Positions 20,773 to 64,000 of a stretch of DNA of 64,000 bases are shown piece after piece (the stretch's first letter is position 1; the number at the start of each line of letters is the position of its first letter). A model generated the notes under the pieces. The model saw nothing but the letters and a program-made list of their open reading frames with translations, was not told where the DNA came from and did not search any database. A program made the translations under genes and the position numbers. This DNA is from a virus (taxonomy: Duplodnaviria; Caudoviricetes), in IMG/VR virus record IMGVR_UViG_3300042543_000618, positions 12,904 to 76,903 of that record; one strand, written 5' to 3'.

Positions 20773-21507
20773 TTAGGTATTGGCGCGATCGCGGTACGCG
20801 CGATCGTTTTCGGCATCGAGTTTCATTTGCATTGCCATACGGTAGAGGCCGTTGGGCATACTTTCTAGGTGCTTGACAATATCTTGCGCTTCAGACAATG
20901 AACGCCCTTTAGAAACCAGCATTGAAGTAAAATCTTCGCGAATCTTAGCTTCACGCTTTTCTTCCTCCCGCTGCATCCTTGTTTGCCCTTGAGCGTTAAC
21001 TTTTAGGCGAACATCGTCAAATTTTTTGCCTGCTTTTTCTTTGGCTCTAGTAGCGCAAGTGGTCCCGAGAAAAACAAATTGGTCTCCACCTTCCCCCTGC
21101 CATTCCTGGGTGGTTTCAAAAACTACCGTTCGCCTTAGTCCTGATTTGCCGCAACAAGAGCAAGTGTCAACCTCGTCTGTAATCCCAACTTGAGCAGCCA
21201 AGGATCTAAATAAATTCTTGGTGGTTTTCTTCTCTGTGCCCTCAATGGTCTTTAAGGCATCTTCCTTTTTAATGACTGGGACGATCTCCTTTGGTTTGTC
21301 GGGCTTGTCCTCTCGTTCCCACCTGCTGTTGGCGTTAAGCCGATAGGTAATGCCGTTTTCTACCTTAGTGTCACCCTCGCTCGGTCCGTCAAATAGTCCT
21401 AGCTGTCCTGGCGACACTTGGCGGCGCCGTCCCGCCTTCCTCAAAACAATGCCGCTAGTGGTCACCACCGGGACGTAGGGCACCCCGGCAAGGGTATAAA
21501 TTTTCAT
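20773..21507 (-). CDS. Leader-bearing putative head cargo protein 1 (Zn-finger-like payload)
   Basis: MKIYTLAGVPY...GIVLRKAG...PGQLGLF..EGDTKVENGITYRLNANSRWER; CSCCGKSGLRRTV...GTTCA. Confidence 0.75.
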   Translation of the reverse strand: MKIYTLAGVPYVPVVTTSGIVLRKAGRRRQVSPGQLGLFDGPSEGDTKVENGITYRLNANSRWEREDKPDKPKEIVPVIKKEDALKTIEGTEKKTTKNLFRSLAAQVGITDEVDTCSCCGKSGLRRTVVFETTQEWQGEGGDQFVFLGTTCATRAKEKAGKKFDDVRLKVNAQGQTRMQREEEKREAKIREDFTSMLVSKGRSLSEAQDIVKHLESMPNGLYRMAMQMKLDAENDRAYRDRANT

Positions 21508-21510
21508 GGG

Positions 21511-22866
21511 TTAACCTCGTCTGATAACTTGCGCCGATGCCACCCGAATGATGTAGCCACGCTCCACCGTCACGTTGGTGGCAGGAGAAATTAGCAATAC
21601 CCCACCCGCACCAGGGACGCCTGCTAGGGCACCATAGAGCGCTTCTACCTCTAAGGTTTGGCCCATCCGCAGGGTGCCAACGTAGCTATTGACCGCAGCG
21701 GCTAGGGCGGCCTCCACGGTGCTGGCGGTGTAGCCAGGTTCCAGGGCATAGGACAGGATAAAGGCAACCCGGCTGGTGGTGGGGACGATCACATCAACCC
21801 CAACCCCTGCCGCTACCCATTTGGTTTCTAGCTCCTGCACCGCTTGCCATACCACCCCCGCGTAGATCACCATCTCCAGGCTATTCAAGTTGCCGCCATT
21901 TCCCCGGGCATAGAGGCGATTGTTGCTGGTGTCATAGAACCATCGGTAATTACCCTGGGAGACGGTCACCGCTGAGTCAGACGGGTTCCATTGCTCCCTG
22001 CCGTCGGTGGTTTGGCTAACCACACCAAAGCGCTTGCAGGGCCAGCCCGCCTCAATTAACCCCTGGGGCGTTTGACTGGTCACCACGTAATAGGTGCCGG
22101 GCAAGTCCGTCGTCTGCCAGGTGCCTGAGCGAAATAGGTCGCCGCCGCTGGCATCGGCTAGCACTCCTCGCACGTAGCCGGGTAGGTCCGATCGCCGCTC
22201 GGTAATAAAACTTACCACCGACGGGAATAACGCGGGCTGGCCCAGGATTGCCGCCTCGGTGGCTGGTATAGTGGCCCGGTGCAACATTGCTAAATGCTGG
22301 GGCACCCTGGCCTTAATCGACGCGTCCGCTTCCGGGTCGGCACCACCCACCGCCGGGTCCAGGTTCACCACATTATCGATACCCACAATCGGCGATCGCA
22401 GCGCGTTGATGCTGCCCCCAACCACATTACCCACCGTCCCTGGCTGGCTACAGGTGCAAATTACCAAGGTCGAGCTTTGAGCGATCGCCAGCGTTGCCGA
22501 TGAATTGGTGGTAAAGACAAGCCCACCACTGGTTTGTACCGCCGTCCCCACAGGGATGGTAACCGCGGTTGTTGTCGCCCCGTAGCGTTCAAAGCGCACC
22601 GCCGCCACCGCTGCAATGCCCGCATTGGCGCTCATGCCAAAGCCTGCTACCAATTGCCTGAGCCACTGCCCCTCACTGGTGGCTAGGATGCTCATCCGCA
22701 GCACGTGGGAGAGAAACCCATATAATCCCTCCATCGATAGGCTGAAGGCCACCAGGAGGCGCTTAAATAGCTTGCCGGTAAAGTTGGCACGCCATTGGGG
22801 TGGCAGGAAGGATAGCATCTGGTCCAATACTTCCTGCCAGGTGAGAAACCGTACATTGTCAGCCAT
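21511..22866 (-). CDS. Baseplate J-like protein
   Basis: TIPVGTAVQT...PGTVGNV...NLDPAVGGADPEADASIKAR signature. Confidence 0.88.
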   Translation of the reverse strand: MADNVRFLTWQEVLDQMLSFLPPQWRANFTGKLFKRLLVAFSLSMEGLYGFLSHVLRMSILATSEGQWLRQLVAGFGMSANAGIAAVAAVRFERYGATTTAVTIPVGTAVQTSGGLVFTTNSSATLAIAQSSTLVICTCSQPGTVGNVVGGSINALRSPIVGIDNVVNLDPAVGGADPEADASIKARVPQHLAMLHRATIPATEAAILGQPALFPSVVSFITERRSDLPGYVRGVLADASGGDLFRSGTWQTTDLPGTYYVVTSQTPQGLIEAGWPCKRFGVVSQTTDGREQWNPSDSAVTVSQGNYRWFYDTSNNRLYARGNGGNLNSLEMVIYAGVVWQAVQELETKWVAAGVGVDVIVPTTSRVAFILSYALEPGYTASTVEAALAAAVNSYVGTLRMGQTLEVEALYGALAGVPGAGGVLLISPATNVTVERGYIIRVASAQVIRRG

Positions 22867-27655: not shown

Positions 27656-27947
27656 GGCTCACCCGGCGATCGCGCACCACCTCAAACAAGGGTCGCAACT
27701 GGCCGCAGATAAGTTGCTCCGCCTCGCTGGTGGCTAGTCGGTTCTCCTGCCAACGGGTCACCCAGTAGGTAATATCCCAATTGGCCGGGTATAGGCTAAG
27801 GCTTTGGCCATTGGGATGACGCAACTCCAGCGGTAGCATGGTGCGGATGAGGTCGCGGTTGTCCATGTACCACTGACAGGCGCGATCGATGTGGGATTTA
27901 TCCATGGGAACCGGCTCTGCCCATAATGGAGTCGAAGGCGGCATCAT
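27648..27947 (-). CDS. Hypothetical protein
   Basis: 99 aa ORF overlapping its neighbours. Confidence 0.5.
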   Translation of the reverse strand: MMPPSTPLWAEPVPMDKSHIDRACQWYMDNRDLIRTMLPLELRHPNGQSLSLYPANWDITYWVTRWQENRLATSEAEQLICGQLRPLFEVVRDRRVSHG

Positions 27948-28959
27948 CTTGCGCCAAGACTTTGGCTATCTTCCTGGCGGTTGGGCTTGTTGCAAGCATG
28001 TGAATCCGTTGCTGCGCGATCGCGTCTTGCTTGGAGTCTGCATCAAAGAAGTTTTCGGGTAGCTTCTCATAAAAAGACTCCATCTGGCTTGTAGCTTTTT
28101 TGATGGCTGGCAGTGTATTGATGACGCTATCCAGCAAGCCAAGGGCAAGCTCTGCTTTGCGTTTAGACGCTTGATCAGTTGTGGAGTTCAGATCACTTAC
28201 AAAATCTTCCCTAAGGGCTTGGAGTGATGGCTTGTCTTCATAGGCATAGCCCCAGGCTTCCTCGAGCGGGTTGATGCCGTGTTGGCTAAGTTCAGAAAAG
28301 TTTTGGGCGGCACCGGCTACGGCGTCGTAGACAGCTTTTGTATAGGCGTCCTTTGGAGGTGGGCTTTTACCTCTAAATACTTCAGCAAGATCGTCAGGTG
28401 TGCAAATGTCTTCTATGCTTTGAACGCCAAAACTATCATAGGCTTTAACAGCAGACTCCCATTCCTTTGCTTGTTGCCTGCAGGAACTAACGGGCCACTC
28501 AGTAAGCAGTTCAATTAACATATCTGGGTCGCCAGACTGCTTGAGAAAGTTTACAAATTGCCCAGCCTCTGGGGATGCACTGTTAAGTGCCGCTTTGGGG
28601 TCAATTCCCGCTAAGGGGTCTTGCTGCTCGCCTTGAACACCCTGGGAGACTTGTTGGTGTAGGGCATGGAGTCCTTCCATCGTCGGCGCTTGTTGCTGCG
28701 CCTGTGGTTGGGCTTGGGCGGCGGGCGTAGCGGGTGCTGCAGGCGTCGCCCCCTGACTTCCAGCAAGGTGCCACCGTCCGCCTTGCAATACCTCCTGGTG
28801 TCCCGCTTGGTTGGTGCGGGTTTCACCTTCTTGGTGTTGAGCGTCAAATAGTCCTAGCTGCCCTGGGGCAGGCGATCGCTTGCCCGCTTTCCTCAAGACG
28901 ATGCCGCCAGCGGTCACCACCGGGACATAGTGCACCCCAGCGAGGGTATAAATTTTCAT
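27898..28959 (-). CDS. Leader-bearing putative head cargo protein 2
   Basis: MKIYTLAGVHYVPVVTAGGIVLRKAG...PGQLGLFD, then an unrelated helical payload. Confidence 0.75.
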   Translation of the reverse strand: MKIYTLAGVHYVPVVTAGGIVLRKAGKRSPAPGQLGLFDAQHQEGETRTNQAGHQEVLQGGRWHLAGSQGATPAAPATPAAQAQPQAQQQAPTMEGLHALHQQVSQGVQGEQQDPLAGIDPKAALNSASPEAGQFVNFLKQSGDPDMLIELLTEWPVSSCRQQAKEWESAVKAYDSFGVQSIEDICTPDDLAEVFRGKSPPPKDAYTKAVYDAVAGAAQNFSELSQHGINPLEEAWGYAYEDKPSLQALREDFVSDLNSTTDQASKRKAELALGLLDSVINTLPAIKKATSQMESFYEKLPENFFDADSKQDAIAQQRIHMLATSPTARKIAKVLAQDDAAFDSIMGRAGSHG

Positions 28960-43156: not shown

Positions 43157-44146
43157 CTACGGTTGAGACGGAACGTTGAGAATCTCGACAATAGCTTCAG
43201 GATACCTTACAGTAAAGGCTAATCTTTCACGAGCCCTGATACCCACTTGGTCCGTTTGGCTTAGCAGTTCCTGATATACCCTGATGTTAAATCGCTGCCA
43301 GTCGCCAATGGCAAAGGCTGATTGGTTCATTACCAGGGCTTTTCCGTAGGCGTCACCGGGTTGCGCATCCAGGAAGGTGGTAGCGATGACCGGGGCGCCA
43401 GCTAGGCGTCCGATCTCACCGGTGAAGATACCAGCGCCAGAGCCATAGGCGTAGCTGCTCATGGTTTGGAAGCTACGGTTACGCAGGAGGGCTTCCTCCC
43501 AGGCTAGGCCCACCATCACCACTACGTCGCGCTTATTGCGTCCGTAGATGCCCAGGTAGCGCATGGCGCGTACTAGGTTGCTAGTGGCGGTGCTGGAGTC
43601 CACCGAATTGGTGCTGGAGTCCAGTGTGGCGTCGTAGGTGTAGGGCGTCGCGGCGGCCTGGGCGAATAGCCCATTAAAGACATTCTTAGGGTCGCCGGGG
43701 CCATGGTCGACGGTGGTATCACCTAGCAGGAAGGCCAGTTCTTCCGCCTGGGCGAATTCCCGTGCCATTTCCTCTTTCAGCATCCCTTCAATATCTCGAA
43801 TGGTGCTGTCCTCGAATACTTCCTGGTCCACGGGTAGCCAGGTCATCAGCTTTTCGGGCACCAAGTCGATACTATCGAGCCGTGCCTTAAATTCCGGCGC
43901 CGGTTGGCCCGCTTTGACGCTGTAGGCACCCTGGGCGCGTACCAGCTTGGGGATGCGGATCTTGGGCTTGGTCATATTGATCAGGCTTTTGCTGCGGTCA
44001 GCGATCTGACGCATAAAGCATTGTTGCCGGATCAGGGGGATCACCTCGGAGGCGATCGTGGTTTGGAGGGTAACCTCGGCACCACCACCATCGCTAATGC
44101 CTAGCGATTTCAGTAGCGCCCGACGGGTCAGGGCTGCGTTCGTCAT
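43157..44146 (-). CDS. Major capsid protein (HK97 fold)
   Basis: EVFEDS..DIEGMLKEEMAREFAQAEELAFLLGD; GRLAGAPVI; IRARERLAFTVRYPEAIV. Confidence 0.92.
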   Translation of the reverse strand: MTNAALTRRALLKSLGISDGGGAEVTLQTTIASEVIPLIRQQCFMRQIADRSKSLINMTKPKIRIPKLVRAQGAYSVKAGQPAPEFKARLDSIDLVPEKLMTWLPVDQEVFEDSTIRDIEGMLKEEMAREFAQAEELAFLLGDTTVDHGPGDPKNVFNGLFAQAAATPYTYDATLDSSTNSVDSSTATSNLVRAMRYLGIYGRNKRDVVVMVGLAWEEALLRNRSFQTMSSYAYGSGAGIFTGEIGRLAGAPVIATTFLDAQPGDAYGKALVMNQSAFAIGDWQRFNIRVYQELLSQTDQVGIRARERLAFTVRYPEAIVEILNVPSQP

Positions 44147-44998: not shown

Positions 44999-47953
44999 CT
45001 AGGAGTAAATAACGTACTGTTGGGGAAACTGAACGTCGATGCCGACAACGCCGGGTGAACCGGCAGGGCGCAAAGGTTTCCCCTTTAGCTCCTCAGGCAT
45101 CTTTTCTACAAATTCGTCCAGTGCTTTGGTTAGGTCGGCATTCATCGCCTTCACCGTCCCCGCCGCTTGGTAGTCGTTCATAAACGGCAATTCTTGAGCG
45201 AAACGGGTGCAGTATTGCAGGAACCGGACAAAGTTCACCATCGGGTCCGTCGGGGTGTCGGTCATGCCCGCGATCGCCCTGGCGCTGTCGGTCAAGAAAG
45301 AAACCGTCTCCGGGCTGCCCCAGGCGTCCTTGTCCATATAACAAGCCTTGGCTAGGTTGCGGGTTAGTTGGGTGATGGTGATACCGAATACATCAGTGGG
45401 GGGCATACCGCCGGAAGAGTAGGGGCGATGGGCCTTGGGTTGCTTGCCACCGATACCCTTACCGGCATGGGCACTACCGGACTCATCCATTTGTACTTTT
45501 TTACCACCCTTAGGCTGTGGGCTTTTGGCGTCAACCTTACGACCCATCGCCGGGATGCCCGTATCCCGCCATGAGCCAGAGCCAAACTCACGCCCAGGAT
45601 TACCCAGGGCTTTGCGGAGGAAGTTATCGATAGTCATGGGGGTGCCTGTCTTGTTAAGTTGGTTTCGCTGGGCAACTTCTTCGTCAATTCTTCGTAGTGC
45701 TTGATCTCGCTTTATTTCTGCGTTGAAGCGGTAAAGCGCTCTGTCTGGCCCAGAAAGGTGGAGCCCTAGCCTTTCTTCCCGGGCTAACCTTGTCGCTTCT
45801 GCTAGTTGAGCGTCAAGCATGTCTGTGTGGTTTTGGTCCGACTCTTGCATTCGGACGCCTTTGGCCCAGTCAATGATCGCACCGAAAACTTTATTGAAAG
45901 GGCGTTGATACGCGCCGTCATTGTTTTGCCAAATTTCTCCTGCTACTTCTTTCTCAAATAGCCTATAAACGTTATCAATTTTTTTGTTGATCTTTTCGAC
46001 AAATTCCCGCTCTGGCACGGCATCCATTTTTACTGCCGTGGAAATGACTTGATTGAGCCGCGACTTAAGTTTTTTGTTAAGTGCGTCGGGGATCTTAGTG
46101 CCGTCACCCCTGCGTAGGTCTAATGAAGCGACAAGCGCCTTCAGGCTTGCAGGTGTTGCGATCGCGTCATCCTCCGGCATCGCGCCATCATCCGCCCCCT
46201 CCATCGCCTCACCCTCAGGCATAGGGATATCGCTTTGGTTCAAGCTGGCCAGATATTCCCCAATAGTTTGGATCTTGAACTCAGGTTTAACCTTTCTCAA
46301 TAAATCCCTATTTTTTCGCGTGTTTGGGACTTCTCTTATTACGTTGCCATCAGCATCTCGAATAATATAAGACGCTGGCGTTTGCCCTCGCATCCCTGTA
46401 ATTGTTTCTTTCATCGGGATTTGACGCCCACCCTCGCCCTCCTCCTCCGCCGCCGCCGCTGGTTCGGCCTCGGGCATGGCCATGGGGCGATCGCTGATCT
46501 TTCTCGCCAAATCGTTATCAAACCTAATGGGCTTGATATTTAGCTTTTTGTACTTGTTTCCGTAGGTGGTTGAAACGGATACGTTGAACATCTCTCCGTT
46601 AGGATTGATCAGCGTTGCGGCGGGCTTGTCGCCAGAAAACCAGACCAATGCAGGCGTCTCGTTTCCGTCAAAATTTATCGTCCTGACTACTCCTTCGGAT
46701 GGACTTCTAGGAATGCCGCCAGCTTCATTGATAATGCGGGTTCGTTCGCCCCCCTCAAAGTACTGAAGGATAGACCGAGCCATCTGGGCAGCCTTACCCC
46801 GATGCTGCTGGCTTTTACTTCTTCTTTCCTTGGACTCATCCAGAGAGGCAATATTAGCACCATCATCCCCACCCGCAGGCTCATCCTCCGCCGCCGCTGG
46901 TTCAGCCTCGGGCATGGCAGCATGGTAGGGGCTTGGCGCATCATCCCCACCCGCAGGTTCACCCTCAGGCATAGGCTCATCCGCGATCGCGGCTTGCTGC
47001 TGCTCTAGCATTTCGCCAACGGTGGGTTCGGGGTCCTGGGCGGCGGGTTCATCCTCCACCACCGGGACGATCGCGGGCTTTTCCGCCTTCTTCTTCCCGC
47101 CAGACGGCTTACCGCTGGCTTTGGGTTTGTCCATCCGTTCCCAGCGGCTATTGCTATTCAGCCGATAGGTAACACCGTCCTCTACTTTGGTATCGCCCTC
47201 ATTGTGGCCACCAAACAAGCCTAGCTGGCCCGGGGAGGGTGCCCGCCGCCGTCCTGCCTTGCGGAGGACAATGCCATGCTCCTCGCTAGGGTGAGCGGTA
47301 TAGGCGATGCCATTCAGGTAGATGTAATGCTGTTGCTTCTGAGCGAGCATGGTATTACCCACAGATTTAGCAAGCGCGGTGATGTACGCGCCATTGTCGG
47401 GGGCCTCGGACTCAATTAGTCGATTAGCCGGGTTGTCAGTGATGCTGAGCTCATCGAGCCGCACGTCGGTAATGAGGTTACAGGTCCGCCCGATCGCATC
47501 TCTACCGGGGCGTACACCGTTGATCTTGCCACCAACGCTAACGCCAAGGTGAACCATGCCCTCTTTGAGCATATTCCACACCACCCGGGCGATGGGGTTA
47601 GCACCAGATAGGACACCCCGCCAGCGGGTAGTGCCATCGCTATCGACACTCATCTCAGTCACCCGGCCCAGGGGGAGCGCGATCGCGGCAAGTAGCCCCA
47701 CTTGCTGGTCGTAGGGAATATTAAGGGCAGAGATGGACTGCTTTAGAAATCGCTCCCAAAAGCCATGGTGCAGGCGAATGGGGCCACCCTTTAGCCCGTC
47801 CGGGCCACGGGTTGCCATGAAGCCAGGGATAGCGCGTTGAATCGCGTTCGGGCAAATGGCATCGCCGTCAAGATCTCTAAAAAAATTGGAGGCTACCCCG
47901 CCCACAACCATATCGGCTGACTTGGACAGGATAGCCTCCAGAGGAAGAACCAT
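44999..47953 (-). CDS. Prohead protease domain fused to a leader-bearing payload
   Basis: RDLDGDAI..., IRLHH, GVSVGG, LDELSITDNPAN (HK97-type protease), then GIVLRKAG...YRLNSNSRWER module. Confidence 0.85.
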   Translation of the reverse strand: MVLPLEAILSKSADMVVGGVASNFFRDLDGDAICPNAIQRAIPGFMATRGPDGLKGGPIRLHHGFWERFLKQSISALNIPYDQQVGLLAAIALPLGRVTEMSVDSDGTTRWRGVLSGANPIARVVWNMLKEGMVHLGVSVGGKINGVRPGRDAIGRTCNLITDVRLDELSITDNPANRLIESEAPDNGAYITALAKSVGNTMLAQKQQHYIYLNGIAYTAHPSEEHGIVLRKAGRRRAPSPGQLGLFGGHNEGDTKVEDGVTYRLNSNSRWERMDKPKASGKPSGGKKKAEKPAIVPVVEDEPAAQDPEPTVGEMLEQQQAAIADEPMPEGEPAGGDDAPSPYHAAMPEAEPAAAEDEPAGGDDGANIASLDESKERRSKSQQHRGKAAQMARSILQYFEGGERTRIINEAGGIPRSPSEGVVRTINFDGNETPALVWFSGDKPAATLINPNGEMFNVSVSTTYGNKYKKLNIKPIRFDNDLARKISDRPMAMPEAEPAAAAEEEGEGGRQIPMKETITGMRGQTPASYIIRDADGNVIREVPNTRKNRDLLRKVKPEFKIQTIGEYLASLNQSDIPMPEGEAMEGADDGAMPEDDAIATPASLKALVASLDLRRGDGTKIPDALNKKLKSRLNQVISTAVKMDAVPEREFVEKINKKIDNVYRLFEKEVAGEIWQNNDGAYQRPFNKVFGAIIDWAKGVRMQESDQNHTDMLDAQLAEATRLAREERLGLHLSGPDRALYRFNAEIKRDQALRRIDEEVAQRNQLNKTGTPMTIDNFLRKALGNPGREFGSGSWRDTGIPAMGRKVDAKSPQPKGGKKVQMDESGSAHAGKGIGGKQPKAHRPYSSGGMPPTDVFGITITQLTRNLAKACYMDKDAWGSPETVSFLTDSARAIAGMTDTPTDPMVNFVRFLQYCTRFAQELPFMNDYQAAGTVKAMNADLTKALDEFVEKMPEELKGKPLRPAGSPGVVGIDVQFPQQYVIYS

Positions 47954-48657: not shown

Positions 48658-49779
48658 TTATTCCCTAATCTGAATGGGCATTACCAGATAGGTCGCCGGG
48701 GACCCATCTGTAAAAACCACTGGCTTAGTCGGCTCGTTCATCTCCACGGTGAAGACTTCGCCAAGGATCGCGTTGGTTAGCGCCTCCTTGATATACTTGC
48801 CATTTCCCGCCAGGGTGATGGGTTCGCTACAAGTTACGCCCTCGACATGCTCCTGAGCCTTGGCCGCCTCTTTTGCCTCCGCACTCATTACCAGCCCGGC
48901 GGTGTCAAATTGAAGTTTGACAATATCCTTGCTTTCGCCTGCTACCACCAGGGTGCGATCTAGGGCGGCTAAAAAAGGCTTGCGATCGCAGGTCGCGATC
49001 TTGGCAAACACCTTAGGAAACAATTGCCGATAGTTGGGATACTGGCCCTCCAGGACACGGCTATAGAGCTCGGTGTTGCCGCATAGGGCATGTACAGACA
49101 CGTCATCAAAGGTTAATTTGACGATGCCTTCGTAGCCCTTCAGGACGGTTAGCAATTCCCTCAGGCTCTTCCCGGGTAGGGTGACGGGGCGATAGTCATC
49201 GGGGATGACAACGCTACCGGGTAGCGGGTAGGCGATCATCCGATGGCCATCGGTGGCCGCTAACTCTATCACCCCTGCCTCCCTTTCTTCGCCGGGGGTA
49301 ACGGAGAAGTGAACGCCGGTAAGTACCTGCTTGCTTTCGTCAGTACTGGCACAGAACACCGTAGCCGCGATCGCGGCCCGTAGTTCTTCTGAGGATATGG
49401 ACAACTCCACCGGGGTGCCGTCCACCTCGGGCAGGTTGGGGTAGTCCTCAGCCAGGAGGGTATTAATGCGGTACTCACCGCCCAGGGTGGTTAGCACCAG
49501 GACAGGGTATTGCAGGTCTAAGGCTACCTGCCCTGATAGGCGCTCCAGGATGGGCTTTAGGTAGGTTGGGGATATGCAACAATCACCGGATTGCTCCATA
49601 TCCACTGGCAAGGAAAAGCTAATCCCTAGCGCCTCGTCAAACCCTTTTAGGATAAGACTGCCATTGTCTAGCTGCATCAGCATATGCCCCAGGACAGGGC
49701 GGCTAGGGCGCTTAGGGATAGCGCGATCGCATAGCGCGATCGCCTCTGCCAGATCACCCGCATCAACTGAAAATTTCAT
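48658..49779 (-). CDS. dnaN: DNA polymerase III beta sliding clamp
   Basis: ASTDESKQVLTGVH, AATDGHRM, SRVLEGQYPNYRQLFP, YLVMPIQIR. Confidence 0.93.
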   Translation of the reverse strand: MKFSVDAGDLAEAIALCDRAIPKRPSRPVLGHMLMQLDNGSLILKGFDEALGISFSLPVDMEQSGDCCISPTYLKPILERLSGQVALDLQYPVLVLTTLGGEYRINTLLAEDYPNLPEVDGTPVELSISSEELRAAIAATVFCASTDESKQVLTGVHFSVTPGEEREAGVIELAATDGHRMIAYPLPGSVVIPDDYRPVTLPGKSLRELLTVLKGYEGIVKLTFDDVSVHALCGNTELYSRVLEGQYPNYRQLFPKVFAKIATCDRKPFLAALDRTLVVAGESKDIVKLQFDTAGLVMSAEAKEAAKAQEHVEGVTCSEPITLAGNGKYIKEALTNAILGEVFTVEMNEPTKPVVFTDGSPATYLVMPIQIRE

Positions 49780-52983: not shown

Positions 52984-53235
52984 ATGTGGGCAATCATGTA
53001 CATGACGCTCAAAAGTTTTCGGTATATATCCGGGCAAAAGTCTTTGTACATCGAGGATGACGAAGACAGGCTACACTTCAGCGGTGTAGATCCCATTTGC
53101 GGCGGCGCGGCGGTGCGGTGGCTAAACAACCATCAGGGCAAGCCGATTATGGTGAATTTCATTTGCTACGGGCCAGAGTGCGTACTGGTTCTAGAGGATG
53201 ACCAGCAAGATCGGCTAACCATTCTAGGGTTCTAG
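52984..53235 (+). CDS. Small hypothetical protein
   Basis: 83 aa ORF divergent from the PatX-like gene. Confidence 0.5.
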   Translation: MWAIMYMTLKSFRYISGQKSLYIEDDEDRLHFSGVDPICGGAAVRWLNNHQGKPIMVNFICYGPECVLVLEDDQQDRLTILGF

Positions 53236-54255
53236 CCATTCCACCTCTGGCAACTCTAGGGCATCCATCGACGTTTTGCCGCCAGGTAGGCCGTAGTATT
53301 GCAGCACTAGCCCCTCCGGCGGGATCTCCATAGTGGCAAGCTTGCGCCTAAACTTAACCGGTATTTTGCCTGCCGAATGGCGACAGTTAGGATGCTGGGG
53401 CAGGCTAGCTACCCAGGCGTCGGGGCGAACGCCAAAGTTAGCAAATAGGTTGCGTTTTAGCACCTCTATTGTAAAAACGCGACCGTCAATCAACCGGCGG
53501 CAATGTTCGCAGGAGCCCGCGTGGGGCATGACATAAGCTAACCGTTGCCCGCTTGCCTCCAGCGTGGCCAGGATGCCTAGGTTCATCATCCGCATGGATT
53601 CGGTGCGGGAAATGGTTTGCGCTCGAGATGCGATCGCATTCAACAGCCGTGACTCGGTATTGATGAGCCATTCCTGTACCATGGCTGGGGTGACGGCACC
53701 AGGGTCCGCGCCTAGCTCCTGGGCGATCAGGTCGCGGCGCAGCAGGTTTTCAAGGATGGGTACTGCCCCGGCAGGGTTGCGGTTTTTTAGCGACTCCACC
53801 GCCAGCACATCTCGCATCATGCCCCGGGCGTCATCGGATAGGCGTTTCACCCAGTCCAATGAAAAGCGAGCGCCCTGGTTAAAGCTTTCCCTCACCGCCG
53901 GGGGGACGTTAGCAATGTCCTCTGGCGTTACCCTAAACCGGGCGGCGTAGCCTGCCACCTGGTCGTCGGGGATGATGGCGGCCAAGTTGCGGCGTAGGCG
54001 GGCGGCGATCGGTTCCTGTTGTTGGTACGCCCATTGGGCCACCTCTCGCACCTTGAGGACGGTCGCCACCCACTCCGGTATCGGTTGGCCGGTGGAGATA
54101 TTCACCAGGTAGGGCTCTGTCACCCCCTCGACGTAGCCATCGACAATGCCAAGCGCGATCGCGTCCTCGTACTGTCGCTCAAACCAATCCAGGAACGCGA
54201 TAATATCGGTCGGCTCAAACTGGCTGAAGTCGTCGGGGGCAAGGGGAGACCACAT
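53224..54255 (-). CDS. Head morphogenesis protein (Mu gpF/SPP1 gp7-like)
   Basis: AQTISRTESMR, CEHCRRLIDGR, LPQHPNCRH; start at a TAATG overlap. Confidence 0.8.
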   Translation of the reverse strand: MWSPLAPDDFSQFEPTDIIAFLDWFERQYEDAIALGIVDGYVEGVTEPYLVNISTGQPIPEWVATVLKVREVAQWAYQQQEPIAARLRRNLAAIIPDDQVAGYAARFRVTPEDIANVPPAVRESFNQGARFSLDWVKRLSDDARGMMRDVLAVESLKNRNPAGAVPILENLLRRDLIAQELGADPGAVTPAMVQEWLINTESRLLNAIASRAQTISRTESMRMMNLGILATLEASGQRLAYVMPHAGSCEHCRRLIDGRVFTIEVLKRNLFANFGVRPDAWVASLPQHPNCRHSAGKIPVKFRRKLATMEIPPEGLVLQYYGLPGGKTSMDALELPEVEWLEP

Positions 54256-54467
54256 TATTCGACGCCCCAACGTTGGAAGCTTTGACGCTCCATGTCCCTG
54301 GTCGGTCGCCAATGGGGAAACATGGAGCGCCAAGCTTGGTAAATGTCAGCGCGATCGCTGCTCTCGTTAAAGCGCATCGCTAGTTCCAAAATATCGAACG
54401 CGGTAGGCTTATCGAAGGCGCATAGCGCATCGCGGATGCCTTCCAGGTAGGAGCGCCAATTAATCAC
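54255..54467 (-). CDS. Small hypothetical protein
   Basis: 70 aa coupled ORF. Confidence 0.5.
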   Translation of the reverse strand: MINWRSYLEGIRDALCAFDKPTAFDILELAMRFNESSDRADIYQAWRSMFPHWRPTRDMERQSFQRWGVE

Positions 54468-55555
54468 CGCTTAGTACCTCCAGGGGGTGTTTCTTTGGCC
54501 TGACGTGCTACCGCCCAACCAACCGCCTTCGGCCAGGAAAGCCCTCGGTCATGCTTGGCGTACTCAATCTTTTGCCAAAGATCAATGTCAATGTCTGATT
54601 CGGTTAAGCCCTCAGTGTCTAAAGCTTCGCGGATAGACGTGGCTACGCGCTTTCCAAGGGAGTCGAGGCTTGGCACACTGGGGCCAGCCTTCATTTTCTC
54701 TAAAAACCTTTTCGTGTCCTGCTGAACTGCAATTTCTTTTAGTTCAGCGCGCATTTTCAGGCGCGGCGACCGATGCTCCTCCACGGAAGATTGTGGTCCT
54801 TGGGACGGCGATTGCTCGTAACTGCGCCGCTTCCGCGATAATATACTGGCCTCCTGCCTGAAAAATTCCTCAGCTAGTCTTTCTCCTTTCTCAGTGGGAA
54901 AAAATCTATCTGATTCCCGGTCGTATTCCAGGAAACCCAAACGGTCTAAATTTCTTAGTCCATCCGAAAAATCTATAAACTCAGAGGTATCAGAGAATCC
55001 TCCGCCGATGATGGCTAGGAAGTTTCGAGCGTCGGAACGGGAGAACGCCTCTATATCCACCTCGAACCCGAGGATCTTTGATAACGCTGACGAAAAAGCC
55101 GTCTTTACGCTTAGCTCCGATAGCTCTTTTTTGAAAGGCTCGTGCCACCCGTAATTTACGATGTGAATTAATGGACTTTTTGTCTCCAGCGTATTGCCGG
55201 TAGATGCACCCGTATCGCTGTCTTCTATTACCGGGGCAACTTTAGGCGCACTGGGCTTAGATGTCTTGGGTTTGTCAGTACGCTCCCATCGGCTATTGCT
55301 ATTCAGTCGATAGGTGACGCCATTTTCCACTTTGGTGTCGCCCTCATTGTGCCCACCAAATAAGCCTAGCTGCCCTGGGGAGGGTTGCCGCCGCCGTCCT
55401 GCCTTGCTTAGCGCTTCCCACTGATGATCTTTGTTGAGCCGGAAAATAGTGCTGCCACGGGTCGCCACTGTGCCGTTAGCAACCTTGGACAGGACTAGGG
55501 AGCGATCGCGCCGTTGCAAGGCATAAAGTCGTCCCATGAATCTTAGAAATGTCAT
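54464..55555 (-). CDS. Leader-bearing putative head cargo protein 3
   Basis: LSKAGRRRQPSPGQLGLFGGHNEGDTKVENGVTYRLNSNSRWER; payload has a wHTH-like segment (LDRLGFLEY...FFPTEKGERLA). Confidence 0.75.
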   Translation of the reverse strand: MTFLRFMGRLYALQRRDRSLVLSKVANGTVATRGSTIFRLNKDHQWEALSKAGRRRQPSPGQLGLFGGHNEGDTKVENGVTYRLNSNSRWERTDKPKTSKPSAPKVAPVIEDSDTGASTGNTLETKSPLIHIVNYGWHEPFKKELSELSVKTAFSSALSKILGFEVDIEAFSRSDARNFLAIIGGGFSDTSEFIDFSDGLRNLDRLGFLEYDRESDRFFPTEKGERLAEEFFRQEASILSRKRRSYEQSPSQGPQSSVEEHRSPRLKMRAELKEIAVQQDTKRFLEKMKAGPSVPSLDSLGKRVATSIREALDTEGLTESDIDIDLWQKIEYAKHDRGLSWPKAVGWAVARQAKETPPGGTKR

Positions 55556-55792: not shown

Positions 55793-56497
55793 ATGGCCAC
55801 TATTACAATCCCCCACGATGATTTACAGTCTGCTTTCAATACCCTAGATAGGCTAGGCATCAAGGCGGGCCAGGGCGCTAGCGTCGAACTTGATGCCACC
55901 GTTCACATTTTAGACGAGTCTATTGATCGTCTGGTACAAACATACCGCCGTCAGCGACAACAATCAGAGCCACCGCCAGAGGCGCTTGGCCGTTGCATTC
56001 GCCTAGACCGGTGCCTACCGGTGCCGCCCTGGGCCAACCATAAGCTACTAGGCTACCAGGCGCGGTTTATCAAATTGATGGAGGAAGCGGGCGATGATCG
56101 CGATCGGCGTCGGGAGTTAATTGATGAATTGCAGTCACTACGGCGATCGGTACGGCTGCGGATCATTCGCGCCACGGTGCAGGGGGACATCATCGCCCAT
56201 CAAACCGTTGTCTACGGTGCCAATGTACTTCAGGTGCCCCTAGAGGGCGCCCTACCCTTGAGCGAACCCACCGGTGAAGCGATGACCGTTAAACGCCTGA
56301 TTCACCTTACCCACCCAACCAGCCCCGAAGACCTATACCTGCGGGAGAAGAATATCACCTGCGAGACGATCTATCGCTACCGATGCCCCGGGCTAGATGA
56401 TGCGGAATGGAACCTACAGAACGAGCCACGGGTGCTGATTGACGCGATCGGCTATCGGGAATTGTTAGAGGCTAGATGGCGACGGGAGGCGGGTTAG
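55793..56497 (+). CDS. Hypothetical protein
   Basis: ATG 55793 (MATITIPHDD...); codon usage like the phage core. Confidence 0.65.
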   Translation: MATITIPHDDLQSAFNTLDRLGIKAGQGASVELDATVHILDESIDRLVQTYRRQRQQSEPPPEALGRCIRLDRCLPVPPWANHKLLGYQARFIKLMEEAGDDRDRRRELIDELQSLRRSVRLRIIRATVQGDIIAHQTVVYGANVLQVPLEGALPLSEPTGEAMTVKRLIHLTHPTSPEDLYLREKNITCETIYRYRCPGLDDAEWNLQNEPRVLIDAIGYRELLEARWRREAG

Positions 56498-59612: not shown

Positions 59613-62231
59613 CTAGAGTTTTCTAACGTAGAACCGCATTCCACCGCCAGGGATTGTGATTGAACCCTTTCGCTGGTCCTGGGTAATGTTAGGGTTGTCC
59701 CCTCCCATTAACTGAATGTGGTCATCGGCCTGCATTTCTAGCAGCCAATTATCAAATTGCTTTTGGGAGATGCGGTTGCCTAATTCATGGCGGATGCGAT
59801 AAATGGGAACTAGATCCCCTAGATTGTAGTCGGCACTAAGCTGATCATAAACGTTGGCCATTTCGCTCTTGAAATTGTCATAGGACTTAATTGGCGTTGT
59901 TTTTGGCTTGGGTTGAGGGGGCGCTTTAGGTTGTTGCCTGGAGATGGGTGACTGGGTTGGGGTTGGATCGTTGCCGCCAAAATCTTCTAGTTTGCTAACA
60001 TAAAAACGCAGTCCACCTCCCGGGATTGTAACCGAATCCTCCCGCTGATCTTGAGCAATGGTAGGCACAGCTTCTCCCGTTAATTGAATTTTGTCGTCCG
60101 CTTGAATGTCAAACAACCATTCATTGAATTGCGCACGGGAGACGCGATCGCCTAGCTCGCGGCGGATGCGATAGATAGGCACCATGTCGCCTAGGTTTTC
60201 CTCGGAGTTGAGCTTGTCGTAGATCCTGGCAACTTCGTTTTTGAACTCACCATAGGACGCGATCGGCTTTGCCTGCGGCTGGGGCTGGGTTTGTGGCTTG
60301 GCCTTGGGTTTAACGGCTGCTTTCTTGCCCTTCGGCTTCACCTTACCTGTCGAGGCTGGCTTTTGCTCGGGCTCAAATGCTTGGCGGATGAAATGGTACT
60401 CGCTGTTGTCGTCCTTAATTTGAGACGTTGATACGTCATTGGCGTCTAGCGCGTAGGCCATATCCGCCCGGCTTAGATCGAGCTTTCGCTGCCGGTTAGC
60501 CCTCACCAAGCGCTTTTTGAAGTCGTCTAGGCTGAGGTTTAGGTCTGGGTGCTGTTTCTGCAAGGTCTCCCATACCTTGGAGATAAATACATTGGAGTTC
60601 CCTAGCCGCCCGCCCTGGGTTGCCTTGGCTGCATTCAGGGCCAGATCGACAAAGGCATCATCTGACAAGGGTTCCGAGGTCGTTTTCTTACCCTTGGGTT
60701 TCACATCAGCCTTTTTCGGCGGCGCCTTAGAGTCAAGCGCCATAAAGGCTTGAATAAAGCGATCTTCAGATCCCGGGACTAGGAACTTGGCCGCTGCACT
60801 CCCGTCCTGATCCGATTGCACTGCCCTTAGGTTTGACGCATCAAAGAAATTCACCCTGCCATCGCCTTTGTTCACTTCAGTTTCCGCGATCGCTCCCTCC
60901 TTTACCTGTTGGGCTACACTTCTCATCATGTCCAGCCTAGCGGGCTCTGAAAGGCTGGCAAAGCCTTTGTCTGGATAGGTGCCGCTTAGCATTTGCCTAA
61001 GCGTGTTCATCTTCTGCTCAGGGCTAAGCTGCCTGATTGCAGGCTCAAGCTTGTCAATAATGTCCTCATCCTGTGGGGTGAGATCAACATCAGCCATCAA
61101 GTAGGCTCGTTTCCTGCCGGTTTGCATCTCCCGCTCTTTTCTTACGCGATCTGTACTCTCTTTAACTTTTTGCCCGAGCACGTGTGTAAGTAGGGCGGCG
61201 CGCTGCCAATCTTCCATCGGCGCCAGGAAATCACGGATTTCCGCGACATCCTGCGGCAGTGTTGTATCTTCTGCCTTCGGCTTTACCTCAGCCTTTTTCG
61301 CCTTCGGCTTTACCTTATCTGTCGGGGCCTTTTTCGCCTTAGCGGGCTTGTCCACGGGGGACACCTTTGGCGTCACCTTGGCCGCCGCCCGTTGTGCCTT
61401 GGCGTTTAATTTGCCCTGCTGCACCGCTTGGGCACCGCCGCCCGGGGGACGGCTATCAAAGCGCATTGCCCTTGGCTTACCTTTTGCTTTAGCGCCATCC
61501 ATCGGGATGACGGGCACTACACCGCCGGGGGGCTTTGGCCGCTTGCCCCTGGCTGGCTTGCTGCCGCGATCGCTCCGTTCCCAGCGACGGTTTTTATTGA
61601 GTCGGTAGGTGACGCCGTTGCGTTCCTTGGTAGCGCCTTCCTCCAGCATGGAGCGTCGGGCTGCCTTCTGTAGGTTGGCGCTGGGAATATGGGATTCTAG
61701 AAAATAAAGGCCGTTGCGTTCCATGTCCATGTGGATGCCTATCAGTACGTCAGCAATCCCCTGGATGCCGTCAGTCAATAGCTCCTCAACCAAGTCCATC
61801 ATGTGGCGGATTAGGTAGGCGTAGCGGTCCGCTAGTTCGTCTAGGATGGCGTATTGGTCGCTGCCATTGCTGTAGGGCATCAAGATAGTGCGATCGCCGA
61901 TATCGTCCGCAGTGCCTACCACCACCATGCCCAGGGTAGCCACATTCTCAGCCACCAGGTCGATATGGGGCAATAGGCTTTCTTGCAACTTATCAAAAAG
62001 TTCATGCAATTGCTGGAAGTTGATGCCTTTCACGTTCCAGTGGGCTAGTTGCAGCGATAGGCGTAGGTCTATTAGCGAACACAGCAAGGCATTCAGGTCG
62101 GCGCCAATGCTACCCCGCTGCTCAGCATCCATCGGCAGCCGGGTATCAAAGTCCGCCGCTTTGCGAAAGACAATGCCACGGGGGGACGCGATCGCGGTGT
62201 AGCGATCGCCTGCAAGGGTGAAGGTTTTCAT
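59613..62231 (-). CDS. Leader-bearing multidomain protein: Dps/ferritin domain plus C-terminal tandem repeat domains
   Basis: MKTFTLAG...GIVFRKA; HWNVKGINFQQLHELFD...IDLVAE; GVTYRLNKNRRWER; two VPIYRIRxELG...GGxRFYV repeats. Confidence 0.85.
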   Translation of the reverse strand: MKTFTLAGDRYTAIASPRGIVFRKAADFDTRLPMDAEQRGSIGADLNALLCSLIDLRLSLQLAHWNVKGINFQQLHELFDKLQESLLPHIDLVAENVATLGMVVVGTADDIGDRTILMPYSNGSDQYAILDELADRYAYLIRHMMDLVEELLTDGIQGIADVLIGIHMDMERNGLYFLESHIPSANLQKAARRSMLEEGATKERNGVTYRLNKNRRWERSDRGSKPARGKRPKPPGGVVPVIPMDGAKAKGKPRAMRFDSRPPGGGAQAVQQGKLNAKAQRAAAKVTPKVSPVDKPAKAKKAPTDKVKPKAKKAEVKPKAEDTTLPQDVAEIRDFLAPMEDWQRAALLTHVLGQKVKESTDRVRKEREMQTGRKRAYLMADVDLTPQDEDIIDKLEPAIRQLSPEQKMNTLRQMLSGTYPDKGFASLSEPARLDMMRSVAQQVKEGAIAETEVNKGDGRVNFFDASNLRAVQSDQDGSAAAKFLVPGSEDRFIQAFMALDSKAPPKKADVKPKGKKTTSEPLSDDAFVDLALNAAKATQGGRLGNSNVFISKVWETLQKQHPDLNLSLDDFKKRLVRANRQRKLDLSRADMAYALDANDVSTSQIKDDNSEYHFIRQAFEPEQKPASTGKVKPKGKKAAVKPKAKPQTQPQPQAKPIASYGEFKNEVARIYDKLNSEENLGDMVPIYRIRRELGDRVSRAQFNEWLFDIQADDKIQLTGEAVPTIAQDQREDSVTIPGGGLRFYVSKLEDFGGNDPTPTQSPISRQQPKAPPQPKPKTTPIKSYDNFKSEMANVYDQLSADYNLGDLVPIYRIRHELGNRISQKQFDNWLLEMQADDHIQLMGGDNPNITQDQRKGSITIPGGGMRFYVRKL

Positions 62232-62240
62232 GGGGGAGTG

Positions 62241-64000
62241 TTAGTTAGTGGGGACGCAATTGGGAACCATCTTGCCGCGCTTTTTCTTCATGCCTACCGC
62301 CTCGTAGCCCTCCCAGCATGGATCGTCATCAGCCTCCTTACTGAGGTCGGCTACAAACTGCTCCCAACTGGTGCCAGCCTTGCGTAGGACGGCGCGGTGA
62401 TGGTCGAAGATATAGGGCACGCCCATTAGGGTAAATACGGGGCTAGCCGCTTTGTTGAGGTCAGCCAGCTCGGCGGGAATGTTTTGACGGTTATCAATCC
62501 ACCATTTGGCATCGGTGGGGAGGTCTTTTCCTTTCTCTCTTAGCTCACCAACAAGGTCCATATTTTTCCTGGCAATATCCTTTGCCCACTTAATTTGCTT
62601 TTCACTACCCTTAAAATCCGCCTGCCTCATCCATTGCTCTGCTGGATGGGCGGCGATCGCCTGCTCCCGTTGTTTTACTTTTTCTGGCGTGTAATTTGGC
62701 GTAAAGGATTCTCCCTCGCGCGGCTCTAGCGCCTCATTGACCAACCGCAACAACCGCCTCATGTGGAGATCTTCCACCGTTTTAGGCTTGGCTGATGGGG
62801 AGTCATCGGGCGGCGGTGCGTCCCACTTTTTCTCTTTTTGTCTGCCATAGGCTTCTAGCTTTGGATTCGCGTCAGCATAAGCCTCCATCAACGCCATGGC
62901 CTTAGCAAAGTCAGAAAACTGGTTCTTTTTGTTGCCTAGCCTAGCGGAAATAGATTGGCTGGCGCTTTCAAGCAAGTTGGCAATATCAGCGTCGTCGTAG
63001 TCCCTTTCAGGCTTCCCATACCGATCAGGGATCTTCTCGGCGCTAAAATTCCTCAGCTTGTCCTCAAAAAAGTCGCCAATCCTTTGCCACTCTTCAGGCG
63101 GATGCTTTTCAGCCATGGCGATCCATTTTTTCGCCCCGCCCTCCGGTGGATAGCGCAGGATGGGAGAGTAGGTGCCTACTTCCACCTTAGCCGGTTCTAT
63201 GGTCAGCTCATCCCGTCGCGCAAACCCTCCGCCCCTTGATGTGCCATCACCACCGCCGCCGCGACTGGTGCCGCTAATTACCCTGGATGATACGCCGGAC
63301 CCTCCCTCTGGCTTTTCTGGTCGGGGTGCAGGCGGTGTTGTGTCCTTTGCTTTTTTGGCTTCAGGTTTCTTCCGTGCCTTAGCTGGCTTTTTAGGTCCCT
63401 CAGGCTCGTCCTCGTCGTCGCTCTCTGCCTTTTTCTTTGAGCCTAAAACCTTTGGCTTGTCCTCGTAGGGGATAAATTTACCACCCTCGTACCATTCACC
63501 GTTTGGGCCATACTCGCCGCCCGCTTTGGCGCGTCGCTGCCTAGGGCTATCATCATCATCGCTTGTCGTTTCCGCTGGTTTGCGTCGGCTTTTAGCCTTG
63601 GTGGTAGGCGCGTCTGGCTCCTCCACAGCCGGACCGATCGCACCCCCTCCCGCCTCAAGGTCTTCGCCCACCATTTCAGGTACATCGTCAACCACCTCAA
63701 GAGGATCTTGAAAGGGACCGTCTGCGTAGTCTGCTACTTGGTTGGCGATCGCCTTTAGTTGATCAATGGGAATCCTTGTCTTTTCGCCAGTATACGGATG
63801 AACGCGATCTACATAGCCTCGGTTTGGCGTCAGAACCAATTCGCCTGGAGTGAGTTGGTATAGGCGGGTCATCGTAGGCGCATACACTGTCTGCCCGTCA
63901 GCAAGTGCAGCTTCTACGGCTTTAACAATTGACTCGTTAAAGTCACCGTATCTTTTGCCCATCTGGATTTCAGCTTGCTTCCGTCCTTCTCGCTCTGCTT
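62241..64000 (-). CDS. Large charged protein (5' end outside window) with C-terminal leader-like motif
   Basis: Frame open to the window end; ...LNKAASPVFTLMGVPY...AVLRKAG...PCWEGYEAVGMKKKRGKMVPNCVP. Confidence 0.75.
   Translation of the reverse strand, partial: AEREGRKQAEIQMGKRYGDFNESIVKAVEAALADGQTVYAPTMTRLYQLTPGELVLTPNRGYVDRVHPYTGEKTRIPIDQLKAIANQVADYADGPFQDPLEVVDDVPEMVGEDLEAGGGAIGPAVEEPDAPTTKAKSRRKPAETTSDDDDSPRQRRAKAGGEYGPNGEWYEGGKFIPYEDKPKVLGSKKKAESDDEDEPEGPKKPAKARKKPEAKKAKDTTPPAPRPEKPEGGSGVSSRVISGTSRGGGGDGTSRGGGFARRDELTIEPAKVEVGTYSPILRYPPEGGAKKWIAMAEKHPPEEWQRIGDFFEDKLRNFSAEKIPDRYGKPERDYDDADIANLLESASQSISARLGNKKNQFSDFAKAMALMEAYADANPKLEAYGRQKEKKWDAPPPDDSPSAKPKTVEDLHMRRLLRLVNEALEPREGESFTPNYTPEKVKQREQAIAAHPAEQWMRQADFKGSEKQIKWAKDIARKNMDLVGELREKGKDLPTDAKWWIDNRQNIPAELADLNKAASPVFTLMGVPYIFDHHRAVLRKAGTSWEQFVADLSKEADDDPCWEGYEAVGMKKKRGKMVPNCVPTN

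Follow-up and report, generated by a model that had tools for sequence, protein, structure and literature searches.

Unrelated head-internal proteins of phage T4 share a short N-terminal capsid-targeting sequence (CTS) that brings them to the scaffold core before the prohead protease cuts it off (PMC9026906). Phage P1 loads several Dar proteins, among them a giant methylase-helicase, into its head and delivers them with its DNA, and 30 N-terminal residues of DarB suffice for the loading of a reporter (PMC9024508). Polyvalent proteins, with two to 15 effector-type domains, have been predicted to be delivered together with phage or plasmid DNA (PMC5512222), and many head proteins of phage SPN3US have N-terminal propeptides, some of 20-24 residues, that are cut at a recurring short motif (PMC10052503). 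Here we describe six late genes of the virus contig IMGVR_UViG_3300042543_000618 (Caudoviricetes; 76,903 bp) that share a modular leader on different payloads. They lie within a stretch of 64,000 nucleotides (bases 12904-76903 of the contig), hereafter the window, to which all coordinates refer unless stated otherwise, and they are named by their left coordinate. We see close to an even chance, if slightly less, that this leader is a composite of two parts: a head-specific handle (module A with its terminal L-x-K-A motif) that would be removed by the prohead protease, followed by a sliding-clamp-binding motif and a second module (module B) that would be kept on the delivered protein.

Separate hidden Markov models (HMMs) of the two modules were run against every six-frame open reading frame (ORF) of at least 40 amino acids (aa) in the whole contig. 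Module A was recovered in six genes and no more, all on the minus strand (E 1.3e-15 to 2.6e-8; next-best match E 1.1), and module B in five of them (20773, 27898, 44999, 54464 and 59613; E 4e-17 to 3e-10), with gene 62241 having module A only, close to its C-terminus. An earlier note on this DNA had named the same six genes as carriers of module A, divergent in 54464, and had seen module B in most of them. All six are indeed open minus-strand frames, module B is found by HMM in 5/6, and gene 54464 has the weakest A score of the six together with a VLSKVA ending. The leader is N-terminal in four of the six genes, internal in the protease gene 44999 and C-terminal in 62241, and all six run in the same direction as the structural genes. 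The close similarity that had been noticed at the DNA level also holds: segments 47141-47262 and 55286-55407 are 87.7% identical (107/122) and segments 21388-21509 and 28843-28960 83.6% (102/122), above the maximum of 62% (mean 49%) among 300 random pairs of 122-nt windows. Codon differences in the modules are mainly synonymous (13 synonymous and four non-synonymous between the protease gene and 54464, seven and three between 20773 and 27898), so that the leader peptide appears to be kept by selection and not by recent copying alone. The payloads had been described as AT-richer and poorer in the cyanobacterial HIP1 octamer. The former is borne out for three genes (46.4% GC in 20773, 51.8% and 50.5% in the two others, compared with 54-60% in the leaders and 56.8 +/- 2.7% in other genes), while the HIP1 difference lacks significance, with 1-1.6 sites expected and 1, 1 and 0 present in 0.5-0.85 kb.

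An alignment of 37 leaders and an AlphaFold2 model built on these 37 rows (mean pLDDT 77) divide the leader into five elements: a beta mini-domain of three strands that closes with V-L-R-K-A, a run of basic residues [GA]-R-R-R, the motif [SA]-P-G-Q-[LM]-x-L-F in a low-confidence linker, a second three-stranded mini-domain with the signature E-G-D-T-K-x-x-N-G-x-T-Y-x-L-N-x-x-x-R-W-x-R, and a short [IV]-V-P-V-[IV]-E-[DE]-like motif 10-25 residues past module B. The earlier description of modules A and B stands, having missed the last of these motifs and the clamp identity of PGQLGLF; what it took for one single tag consists of several separable parts (module A, linker, clamp motif and module B). 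K24 and A25 are conserved in at least 90% of the 37 leaders and are the top positions of module A, and the sole invariant residue is W63. Strands are predicted at residues 4-6, 9-16 and 19-24 and again at 47-50, 53-57 and 63-65 (pLDDT 79-94), with VLRKA forming part of a strand, and the linker between the mini-domains, which holds QLGL, has a pLDDT of ~59-73, so that in the model the clamp motif would be flexible and exposed. A pre-leader of the type D-P-Y...L-x-K-A-A precedes module A in some homologues. The motif [IV]-V-P-V-[IV]-E-[DE] was considered as a cleavage site and is unlikely to be one, because the residue preceding the acidic pair is not fixed (E, Q, S or P). The leader is not annotated in Pfam or PHROGs, its model found nothing in Foldseek at E <=0.001, and a sequence search of the PDB gave no significant match. 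The best Foldseek row for the model (21292-21507, minus strand) was 8y6v_I (E 0.37, 27 columns, rmsd 2.0), a 34-residue chain of the PhiKZ capsid reconstruction, which is non-significant and serves as a lead only, in that small beta-hairpins can be capsid-bound.

The stand-alone tagged genes differ in what follows or precedes the leader. Gene 20773..21507 (minus strand, 244 aa; module A E 1.3e-15, module B E 4e-17) directly follows the baseplate-wedge gene; its leader comprises residues 1-72 (21292-21507), with module A at 1-25 ending in VLRKA, QLGLF at 35-39 (21391-21405) and module B at ~44-65, and its AT-rich payload has a cysteine cluster. Gene 27898..28959 (minus strand, 353 aa; A 1.8e-13, B 3e-10) combines QLGLF at residues 34-38 (28846-28860) with a variant module B (EGETRTNQAGHQEVLQGGRWH) and a Q/A/P-rich linker; it has orthologues with 46-99% identity, and its payload found no match in an Atlas search. 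In gene 54464..55555 (minus strand, 363 aa; A 2.6e-8, B 1.5e-16), the divergent module A (residues 1-27) is followed by an extra B-like hairpin, ALSKA at 49-52, QLGLF at 62-66 (55358-55372) and module B; the payload, for which the Atlas search gave sub-threshold winged-helix look-alikes only, is possibly a winged-helix protein. Gene 59613..62231 (minus strand, 872 aa; A 1.1e-11, B 4e-13) carries module A at residues 1-25 (VFRKA), a Dps/ferritin-like domain at 45-166 (61734-62099, minus strand; PF00210, 7e-12; phrog_3636 'DNA binding protein', 1e-16), NLQKA at 187-190, module B at 198-221 (within 61557-61664) and K/A/P-rich linkers. V-F-R-K-A and N-L-Q-K-A stand on either side of the Dps domain, which could be released as a free, Dps-size unit. 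At the C-terminus of the same protein (59616-60290, minus strand) there are two repeats of ~105 residues, ~60% identical to each other (BLAST, relatives), with sub-threshold winged-helix matches (MCM4_WHD, DnaA_N), and sister phages have middle regions of differing length (frames of 553, 672 and 872 aa). Finally, gene 62241..63998 (minus strand; A 7.8e-11) encodes 573 aa from an ATG at 63962, its frame being open to the contig end, and has module A at 62349-62456 (open-frame residues 518-543) between L-N-K-A and L-R-K-A. Its tail (62244-62335, minus strand) reads D-P-C-W-E-G-Y-E-x-V-G-M-K-K-K-x-G-K-x-V-P-N-C-V-P, matches seven PHROGs of unknown function (best phrog_9737, 5.5e-9) and is also found C-terminally in homologues P0136 and P0147, straight after a C-terminal module A. 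Pfam found the ferritin-like domain as the only family in the window's six proteins. A 512-aa gene adjoining the portal gene beyond the window (L053, contig positions 1629-3164, minus strand) gave a marginal B-like match (HMM E 6.8e-4), with G-R-A-Y-V-F-N-A-N-N-R-W after A-L-K-R-D-A and three L-x-K-A motifs, and could represent a degenerate seventh member.

The sixth carrier, 44999..47953 (minus strand, 984 aa), is a putative prohead protease-scaffold fusion and would link the leader with head assembly. An S78-like protease domain (residues 1-200, ending in ALAKS) is followed by a full leader at residues 207-278 (47120-47335; LRKA at 230-233, QLGLF at 243-247 or 47213-47227), then by a variable acidic region and a conserved C-terminal part of ~210 aa that contains FLRKA, NLAKA and DLTKA. 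The gene lies two genes upstream of that for the HK97-fold major capsid protein. Among sister phages the protein varies between 845 and 1,071 aa while both ends are 97-100% identical, and the middle (44999-47119, minus strand) consists of acidic Pro/Ala/Glu-rich near-repeats (P-M-P-E-G-E..., A-M-P-E-A-E-P-A-A-A...). In homologues with 80% identity in the protease domain, ParB_N or DnaJ domains occupy the middle of the polypeptide. The same two families are found on stand-alone, N-terminally tagged proteins, so payload-type domains do occur attached to a protein that would enter the procapsid.

The L-x-K-A sites behave like a processing motif, as judged from their conservation and distribution. 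ALAKS, FLxKA and DLTKA are kept in 14/14 aligned protease proteins, down to 62% identity, and protease homologues without modules A and B keep L-E-K-A, with PGQMA[LM]NF following it, or L-S-K-A at the same place. Compared with 500 composition-preserving shuffles, [LIVFM]-x-K-A is enriched in 18 head-module proteins (20 occurrences vs 8.0 +/- 2.9 expected; no shuffle reached 20), and also when the module-A copies are masked (16 vs 8.1; 5/500 shuffles), whereas 26 tail-module proteins show no enrichment (5 vs 5.6). In HK97 itself, the capsid protein is cleaved behind a lysine. Our capsid protein has no L-x-K-A, and cleavage at this motif is for this reason put forward as an inference. The architecture of leader, conserved short motif and cargo could work much like the T4 CTS. 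In T4, a signal of ~10 residues is cleaved behind L/I-x-E by a protease of the T4 type. The leader described here is 70-100 residues long and made of two folded mini-domains, its candidate site is L-x-K-A and the protease is HK97/S78-like; moreover, the mature protein would retain the greater part of the leader (clamp motif and module B). As in SPN3US and PhiKZ, the candidate cut motif recurs several times within one protein; there the motif is A-x-E and the protease T4-like, and the accessible text describes no shared leader domain or clamp motif (PMC10052503).

The earlier note had proposed building HMMs of the modules and cataloguing payloads, and a leader profile was accordingly searched against 1.84 billion representative proteins. 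It matched 106 proteins at E <=1e-3, 37 at <=1e-10 and seven at <=1e-30. By motif-based sorting, about 35-40 of the 106 have the leader at or near the N-terminus of mutually unlike payloads; the rest are mainly giants (900-3,450 residues) in which module B stands between domains one to three times. In a set of 33 full-length tagged proteins, Pfam recognised two families of ADP-ribosyltransferases (one protein each), one ParB_N and one DnaJ, and none in the others, in agreement with the proposed portable tag on unrelated payloads. All four giant module-B proteins searched had domains of polyvalent type (LPD1 twice, ADPrib_exo_Tox, Methyltransf_23, and N6_Mtase with SNF2 and Helicase_C). Ten further matches yielded InPase, ART-PolyVal (below cut-off), WGR and a Mu-type portal, with no family in five of them, and P0222 gave just two sub-threshold matches (Zeta_toxin, nSTAND_NTPase5). 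Module B is located in the C-terminal extension of the Mu-type portal (PF06074, 2e-11) and also adjoins the InPase and ART-PolyVal domains. This spectrum supports, at the level of protein families, a placement of the tag's relatives in the sphere of effectors predicted to be packaged or injected (polyvalent proteins, Mu-type portal, prohead protease). No relatives of the distant leader or protease proteins P0140, P0158 and P0252 were found in a search of viral contigs, and P0244 had one there, on a single contig of 4.7 kb. A scan of species-genome contigs gave one weak module-B-like locus (in a Clostridia metagenome-assembled genome) and no prophage copies with the patterns used. A 35-mer of module B had four weak matches in INPHARED, the best being a giant ADP-ribosyltransferase of Pseudomonas phage Dolphis. 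Outside phages, a DUF6884 protein encoded near a MOBP relaxase gene on the mobilisable plasmid pRK1-3 of Cupriavidus basilensis (L055, 10894-12642, plus strand) has QLTLF at residue 26 and the module B sequence E-G-D-R-K-V-E-H-G-T-E-Y-V-L-R-N-G-R-W between two domains.

These homologues resemble two of the described delivery systems. As in the P1 Dar system, module-B proteins include methylase-SNF2 giants. A homology between the leader and the DarB signal, the packaging signal of this type that has been studied best, was rejected, since the first 100 residues of DarB are without L-x-K-A, Q-L-x-L-F, module A or module B. The likeness to polyvalent proteins is one of domains and setting: LPD1, ART-PolyVal, InPase, ParB-N and methylase-helicase domains occur in the homologues, though not in the window's own six proteins, tagged genes are located beside portal-terminase packaging genes or late genes, and module B is an inter-domain bead in the giants. 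Giant homologues with module B combine several effector-type domains, as polyvalent proteins do; the protease fusions and the 59613 protein, with its Dps domain and two repeats, are multi-domain in a looser sense, and the other window genes have one payload each. In contrast to polyvalent proteins and MuF-fused effectors, the effectors here are mostly separate genes with one leader copy each and not one giant chain. The accessible text of Iyer et al. 2017 (PMC5512222) has no mention of 'clamp' or 'linker' and no 'hairpin' passage on module B.

The linker motif P-G-Q-L-G-L-F, present as QLGLF in 4/6 window proteins, fits the canonical consensus for binding to the bacterial beta clamp, i.e. Q-phi-x-[L/M]-[F/L] or Q-phi-x-[L/M]-x-[F/L], of which Q-L-x-L-F is the best binder, and the E. 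coli Pol II peptide TLMTGQLGLF binds with a Kd of 1.7 uM (PMC11139829). GQLGLF is the same hexapeptide as in Pol II, and every occurrence of 'QLGLF' in the literature searched concerns the beta clamp or the docking of its peptide. The 106 profile matches contain 52 instances of Q[LMIV]x[LM]F where composition predicts 2.6, a count taken from related sequences and not from independent events. Among 83 distinct PGQ contexts, 41 are clamp-type (36 pentamers and five hexamers, including QLGLF, QMSLF, QMNLF, QLDLF, QMALNF and QMALDF), and 36 of these 41 are located at most 14 residues past K-A or K-V. Most proteins have the motif between modules A and B and a few have it after module B; it persists in protease homologues without modules A and B, and is absent from protease homologues P0243, P0244 and P0249-P0252. 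In 8/46 module-B proteins of at least 900 aa it is found within the first 80 residues, directly past phi-x-K-[AD]. Compared with known clamp ligands (Pol II, Pol IV, Pol V, Hda and MutS), the resemblance is one of motif only: the carriers are late or structural-module proteins, prohead proteases and polyvalent proteins, not replication or repair enzymes. As in Hda, the motif would be near the N-terminus, here after the proposed cut, in a flexible stretch. A literature search found no report that links clamp-binding motifs with capsids or ejection proteins.

A candidate partner for Q-L-x-L-F is encoded by the phage itself, as a beta sliding clamp DnaN (48658..49779, minus strand, 373 aa; phrog_947, 1.3e-62) within the cluster of head genes. 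It lies upstream of the protease gene, at a distance of less than 1 kb and with one small ORF (48203-48655) in between, and has the MuF-like gene on its other side. Its identity is 90-94% to the clamps of sister phages and ~40% to cyanobacterial DnaN, and relatives have the three Pfam DnaN domains. The stretches T-D-G-H-R-L, P-N-Y-R and L-V-M-P, which we take to be the peptide pocket, are kept and are invariant or nearly so when compared with 49 cyanobacterial clamps. A predicted complex of DnaN with the leader scored 0.59 against 0.00 for the best of three controls, which is weak support: the mark is reached by 58/80 solved complexes and 2/110 mismatched pairs, and passing scores of at most 0.60 belong to only seven of the 80 solved complexes and to both passing mismatches. 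The runs share at least 73% of contacts, with a partner pLDDT of at least 64, and the prediction amounts to a likeness that may go back to the clamp-peptide complexes already solved. The dnaN gene is present at 91-94% identity in 3/3 sister phages, each of which has 7-9 leader or module matches, and is missing from G004 (95% complete according to CheckV), which has module B in one giant protein only, a comparison that involves a single record. A DNA methyltransferase gene (50315-51241, minus strand; phrog_363, 2.7e-78) is embedded together with dnaN between the MuF-like gene and the protease gene and is missing in contig L037, which is otherwise 95-99% identical.

Comparison with close relatives shows how payloads change. 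The sister contigs G001-G003 (76-92 kb) have seven, nine and nine leader-profile matches, respectively. At the 54464 locus, DNA identity to G003 is 93% from the upstream gene to position 55281, the end of module B, similarity is nil over the payload and returns at 54486, just ahead of the MuF-like gene. In L037, whose head proteins are 95-99% identical, the same flanks are joined and the whole 54464 gene is absent, so the locus exists in three allelic states in close relatives (one payload, another payload, no gene). In more distant relatives, tagged genes are found elsewhere in the baseplate module. Such natural replacement behind one and the same leader would be compatible with a leader that suffices to load a foreign protein into the head. 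The exchange of payloads, for which the earlier note had suggested conserved DNA as the means, is thus seen at an orthologous locus; recombination between paralogues within the genome is less obvious, because their leaders share identical runs of 19-20 bases at the longest.

Taken together, the earlier reading as a capsid-cargo system is partly supported by evidence that is indirect though convergent, and is incomplete. In the extended version that we prefer, the shared portable leader would mark accessory late proteins as procapsid cargo, with module A (~25 residues) as the head-specific handle that ends in L-x-K-A. At this motif, with G or A following, the phage's prohead protease of the HK97 family (S78) would probably cut; the protease itself carries the same cassette at its protease/scaffold junction. 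After the cut, the mature protein would start with the basic stretch, followed by P-G-Q-[LM]-x-L-F and module B. Since the clamp motif and module B are also found in giant polyvalent proteins and, weakly, in the plasmid protein, module B and Q-L-x-L-F are unlikely to be the capsid address itself, and we propose that they act post-delivery by tethering the cargo to the sliding clamp on DNA in the newly infected cell. The cargo would comprise Dps-like, winged-helix-like, ParB-N, DnaJ and ADP-ribosyltransferase domains as well as unknowns, and new payloads might be gained by replacing all sequence downstream of module B. Packaging, cleavage at L-x-K-A, clamp binding and injection are what we infer here from sequence patterns.

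Several observations weigh against this proposal. The protease assignment combines weak direct scores (phrog_9427, 7e-5; TIGR01543, E 0.0056, 16.8 bits against a cut-off of 59; a single INPHARED match, to a Rhodococcus phage protease, at E 2e-3) with transitivity through the homologue P0252, which is 65% identical and has PF04586 (Peptidase_S78). Pfam gave no match to the protease domain at E <=0.1, a PDB sequence search with it returned nothing meaningful, and an AlphaFold2 model of residues 1-300 (mean pLDDT 45) was not used. The capsid protein lacks L-x-K-A, as mentioned above. Module A is not always N-terminal, being C-terminal in 62241 and some homologues and internal in others, and genes 20773 and 27898 are placed among baseplate genes and not among head genes. 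Q-L-x-L-F is absent from the 59613 protein and from about nine homologue families, and the protease-scaffold, although destroyed in the head, nonetheless carries it. The clamp-motif counts are not independent, and the complex prediction is a weak pass for a textbook motif. The plasmid DUF6884 protein has a clear motif, if a weak tblastn match (E 0.06-0.2), and parts of the leader are thus not specific for capsids.

The plasmid protein, which is beyond the reach of any capsid, is also among the arguments for a clamp-tethering cassette that works within the cell and without packaging, with the tagged proteins riding the phage or host clamp on replicating DNA. By analogy with T4 gp45, which connects replication with late transcription and packaging, such a cassette would tie head assembly to replication, late functions and the protection of DNA (Dps, winged-helix, ParB-N). 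The fit of the motif to the clamp consensus and its strong enrichment, the position of dnaN among head genes and the DNA-binding appearance of several payloads are all in line with it, and phages Mu and T4 are reported to employ clamps for late functions. We nevertheless regard it as unlikely, as it leaves unexplained the conservation and head-specific enrichment of L-x-K-A, the cassette within the prohead protease, the ParB_N and DnaJ fusions, the occurrence of module B on a portal and the kinship with polyvalent proteins that are predicted to be delivered with DNA (PMC5512222).

Somewhat more doubtful is an interpretation of modules A and B as ordinary small structural, oligomerisation or DNA-binding units that were spread by recombination among late genes, in which case L-x-K-A would be no more than a final beta-strand and Q-L-x-L-F a product of chance or of structure, without targeting, cleavage or clamp binding. 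The lack of a functional anchor in Pfam, PHROGs, PDB and Foldseek, the position of VLRKA in a predicted strand and the K/A/P-rich linkers, which suggest DNA binding, agree with such units. However, the clamp motif keeps both penta- and hexameric forms and moves independently of A and B, L-x-K-A persists without module A and is enriched in head-module proteins only, and the payload spectrum fits delivered effectors.

It is also conceivable, if improbable, that DnaN itself takes part in the capsid-cargo pathway, either as an adaptor that joins the motifs of scaffold and cargo, or through ejected cargo and scaffold fragments that occupy host clamps, or both. The narrower version, in which DnaN is made late, from the head genes, and the two pockets of its dimer bridge Q-L-x-L-F of protease-scaffold and cargo into the procapsid, perhaps drawing in the clamp as well, would account for the same motif on both partners, its retention in protease homologues without modules A and B, and a dnaN near the protease gene that is kept in 3/3 sister phages and lacking in G004, but we hold this for the least probable of all, given that the dnaN comparison has one record without the gene, that the motif is absent from P0243, P0244, P0249-P0252 and the 59613 protein, and that no clamp-packaging phage was found in the literature searched.

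The genomic surroundings are those of a cyanobacterial myovirus. The minus strand holds nearly all genes from ~64000 down to 14400, which form the late region. It encodes the MuF/SPP1 gp7-like minor head protein (53224..54333, minus strand; phrog_581, 1.2e-7) directly downstream of tagged gene 54464, the HK97-fold major capsid protein that marks the head module (43157..44146, minus strand; phrog_10, 2e-29; TIGR01554, 6.6e-25), a gene at 44177-44983 between those for protease and capsid, the tail sheath (35823-38237) and the baseplate wedge (21511-22866; phrog_6, 5e-43). The portal gene (contig positions 3119-4678; phrog_2662, 1.6e-36) is just beyond the window. INPHARED phages gave no match to the capsid protein or the leader. 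The window contains 124 copies of the HIP1 octamer against 1.3 expected, and no tRNA genes were found in it. A serine recombinase gene (3684-5042, plus strand; PF00239, 5.9e-19) and a replisome-organiser-like gene (7946-9133, sub-threshold match) suggest a temperate phage with its own replication initiation. A closure of the contig to a circle with one gene across the junction was rejected, as no reading frame spans the junction. Between tagged genes, 56494-58140 (minus strand, 548 aa) has the lowest GC content of the late region (49.1%), no HIP1 sites and a marginal CoiA nuclease-like match (E 5.7e-4), and looks like a recent acquisition.

Module B, which recurs between the domains of giant polyvalent proteins and is without an entry in Pfam or PHROGs, is now named and bounded. 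If the composite reading is true, these phages would possess a sequence-defined, naturally swappable tag for head loading, represented in 106 protein clusters, and a candidate cleavage rule for HK97-type prohead proteases would be at hand. It would further imply a link, hitherto unreported, between delivered effectors of phages and plasmids and the bacterial sliding clamp. Should DnaN indeed be part of the pathway, ejected motifs would place effectors on DNA and compete with host polymerases, and phi-x-K-A plus Q-L-x-L-F at the N-termini of giants would serve as a general signal for entry, tying delivery to clamp capture. Under the composite reading, cargo proteins would become readable directly from metagenomic phage genomes, providing function-free handles for finding new anti-defence or take-over effectors, and a design for loading foreign proteins into temperate cyanobacterial myoviruses would suggest itself.

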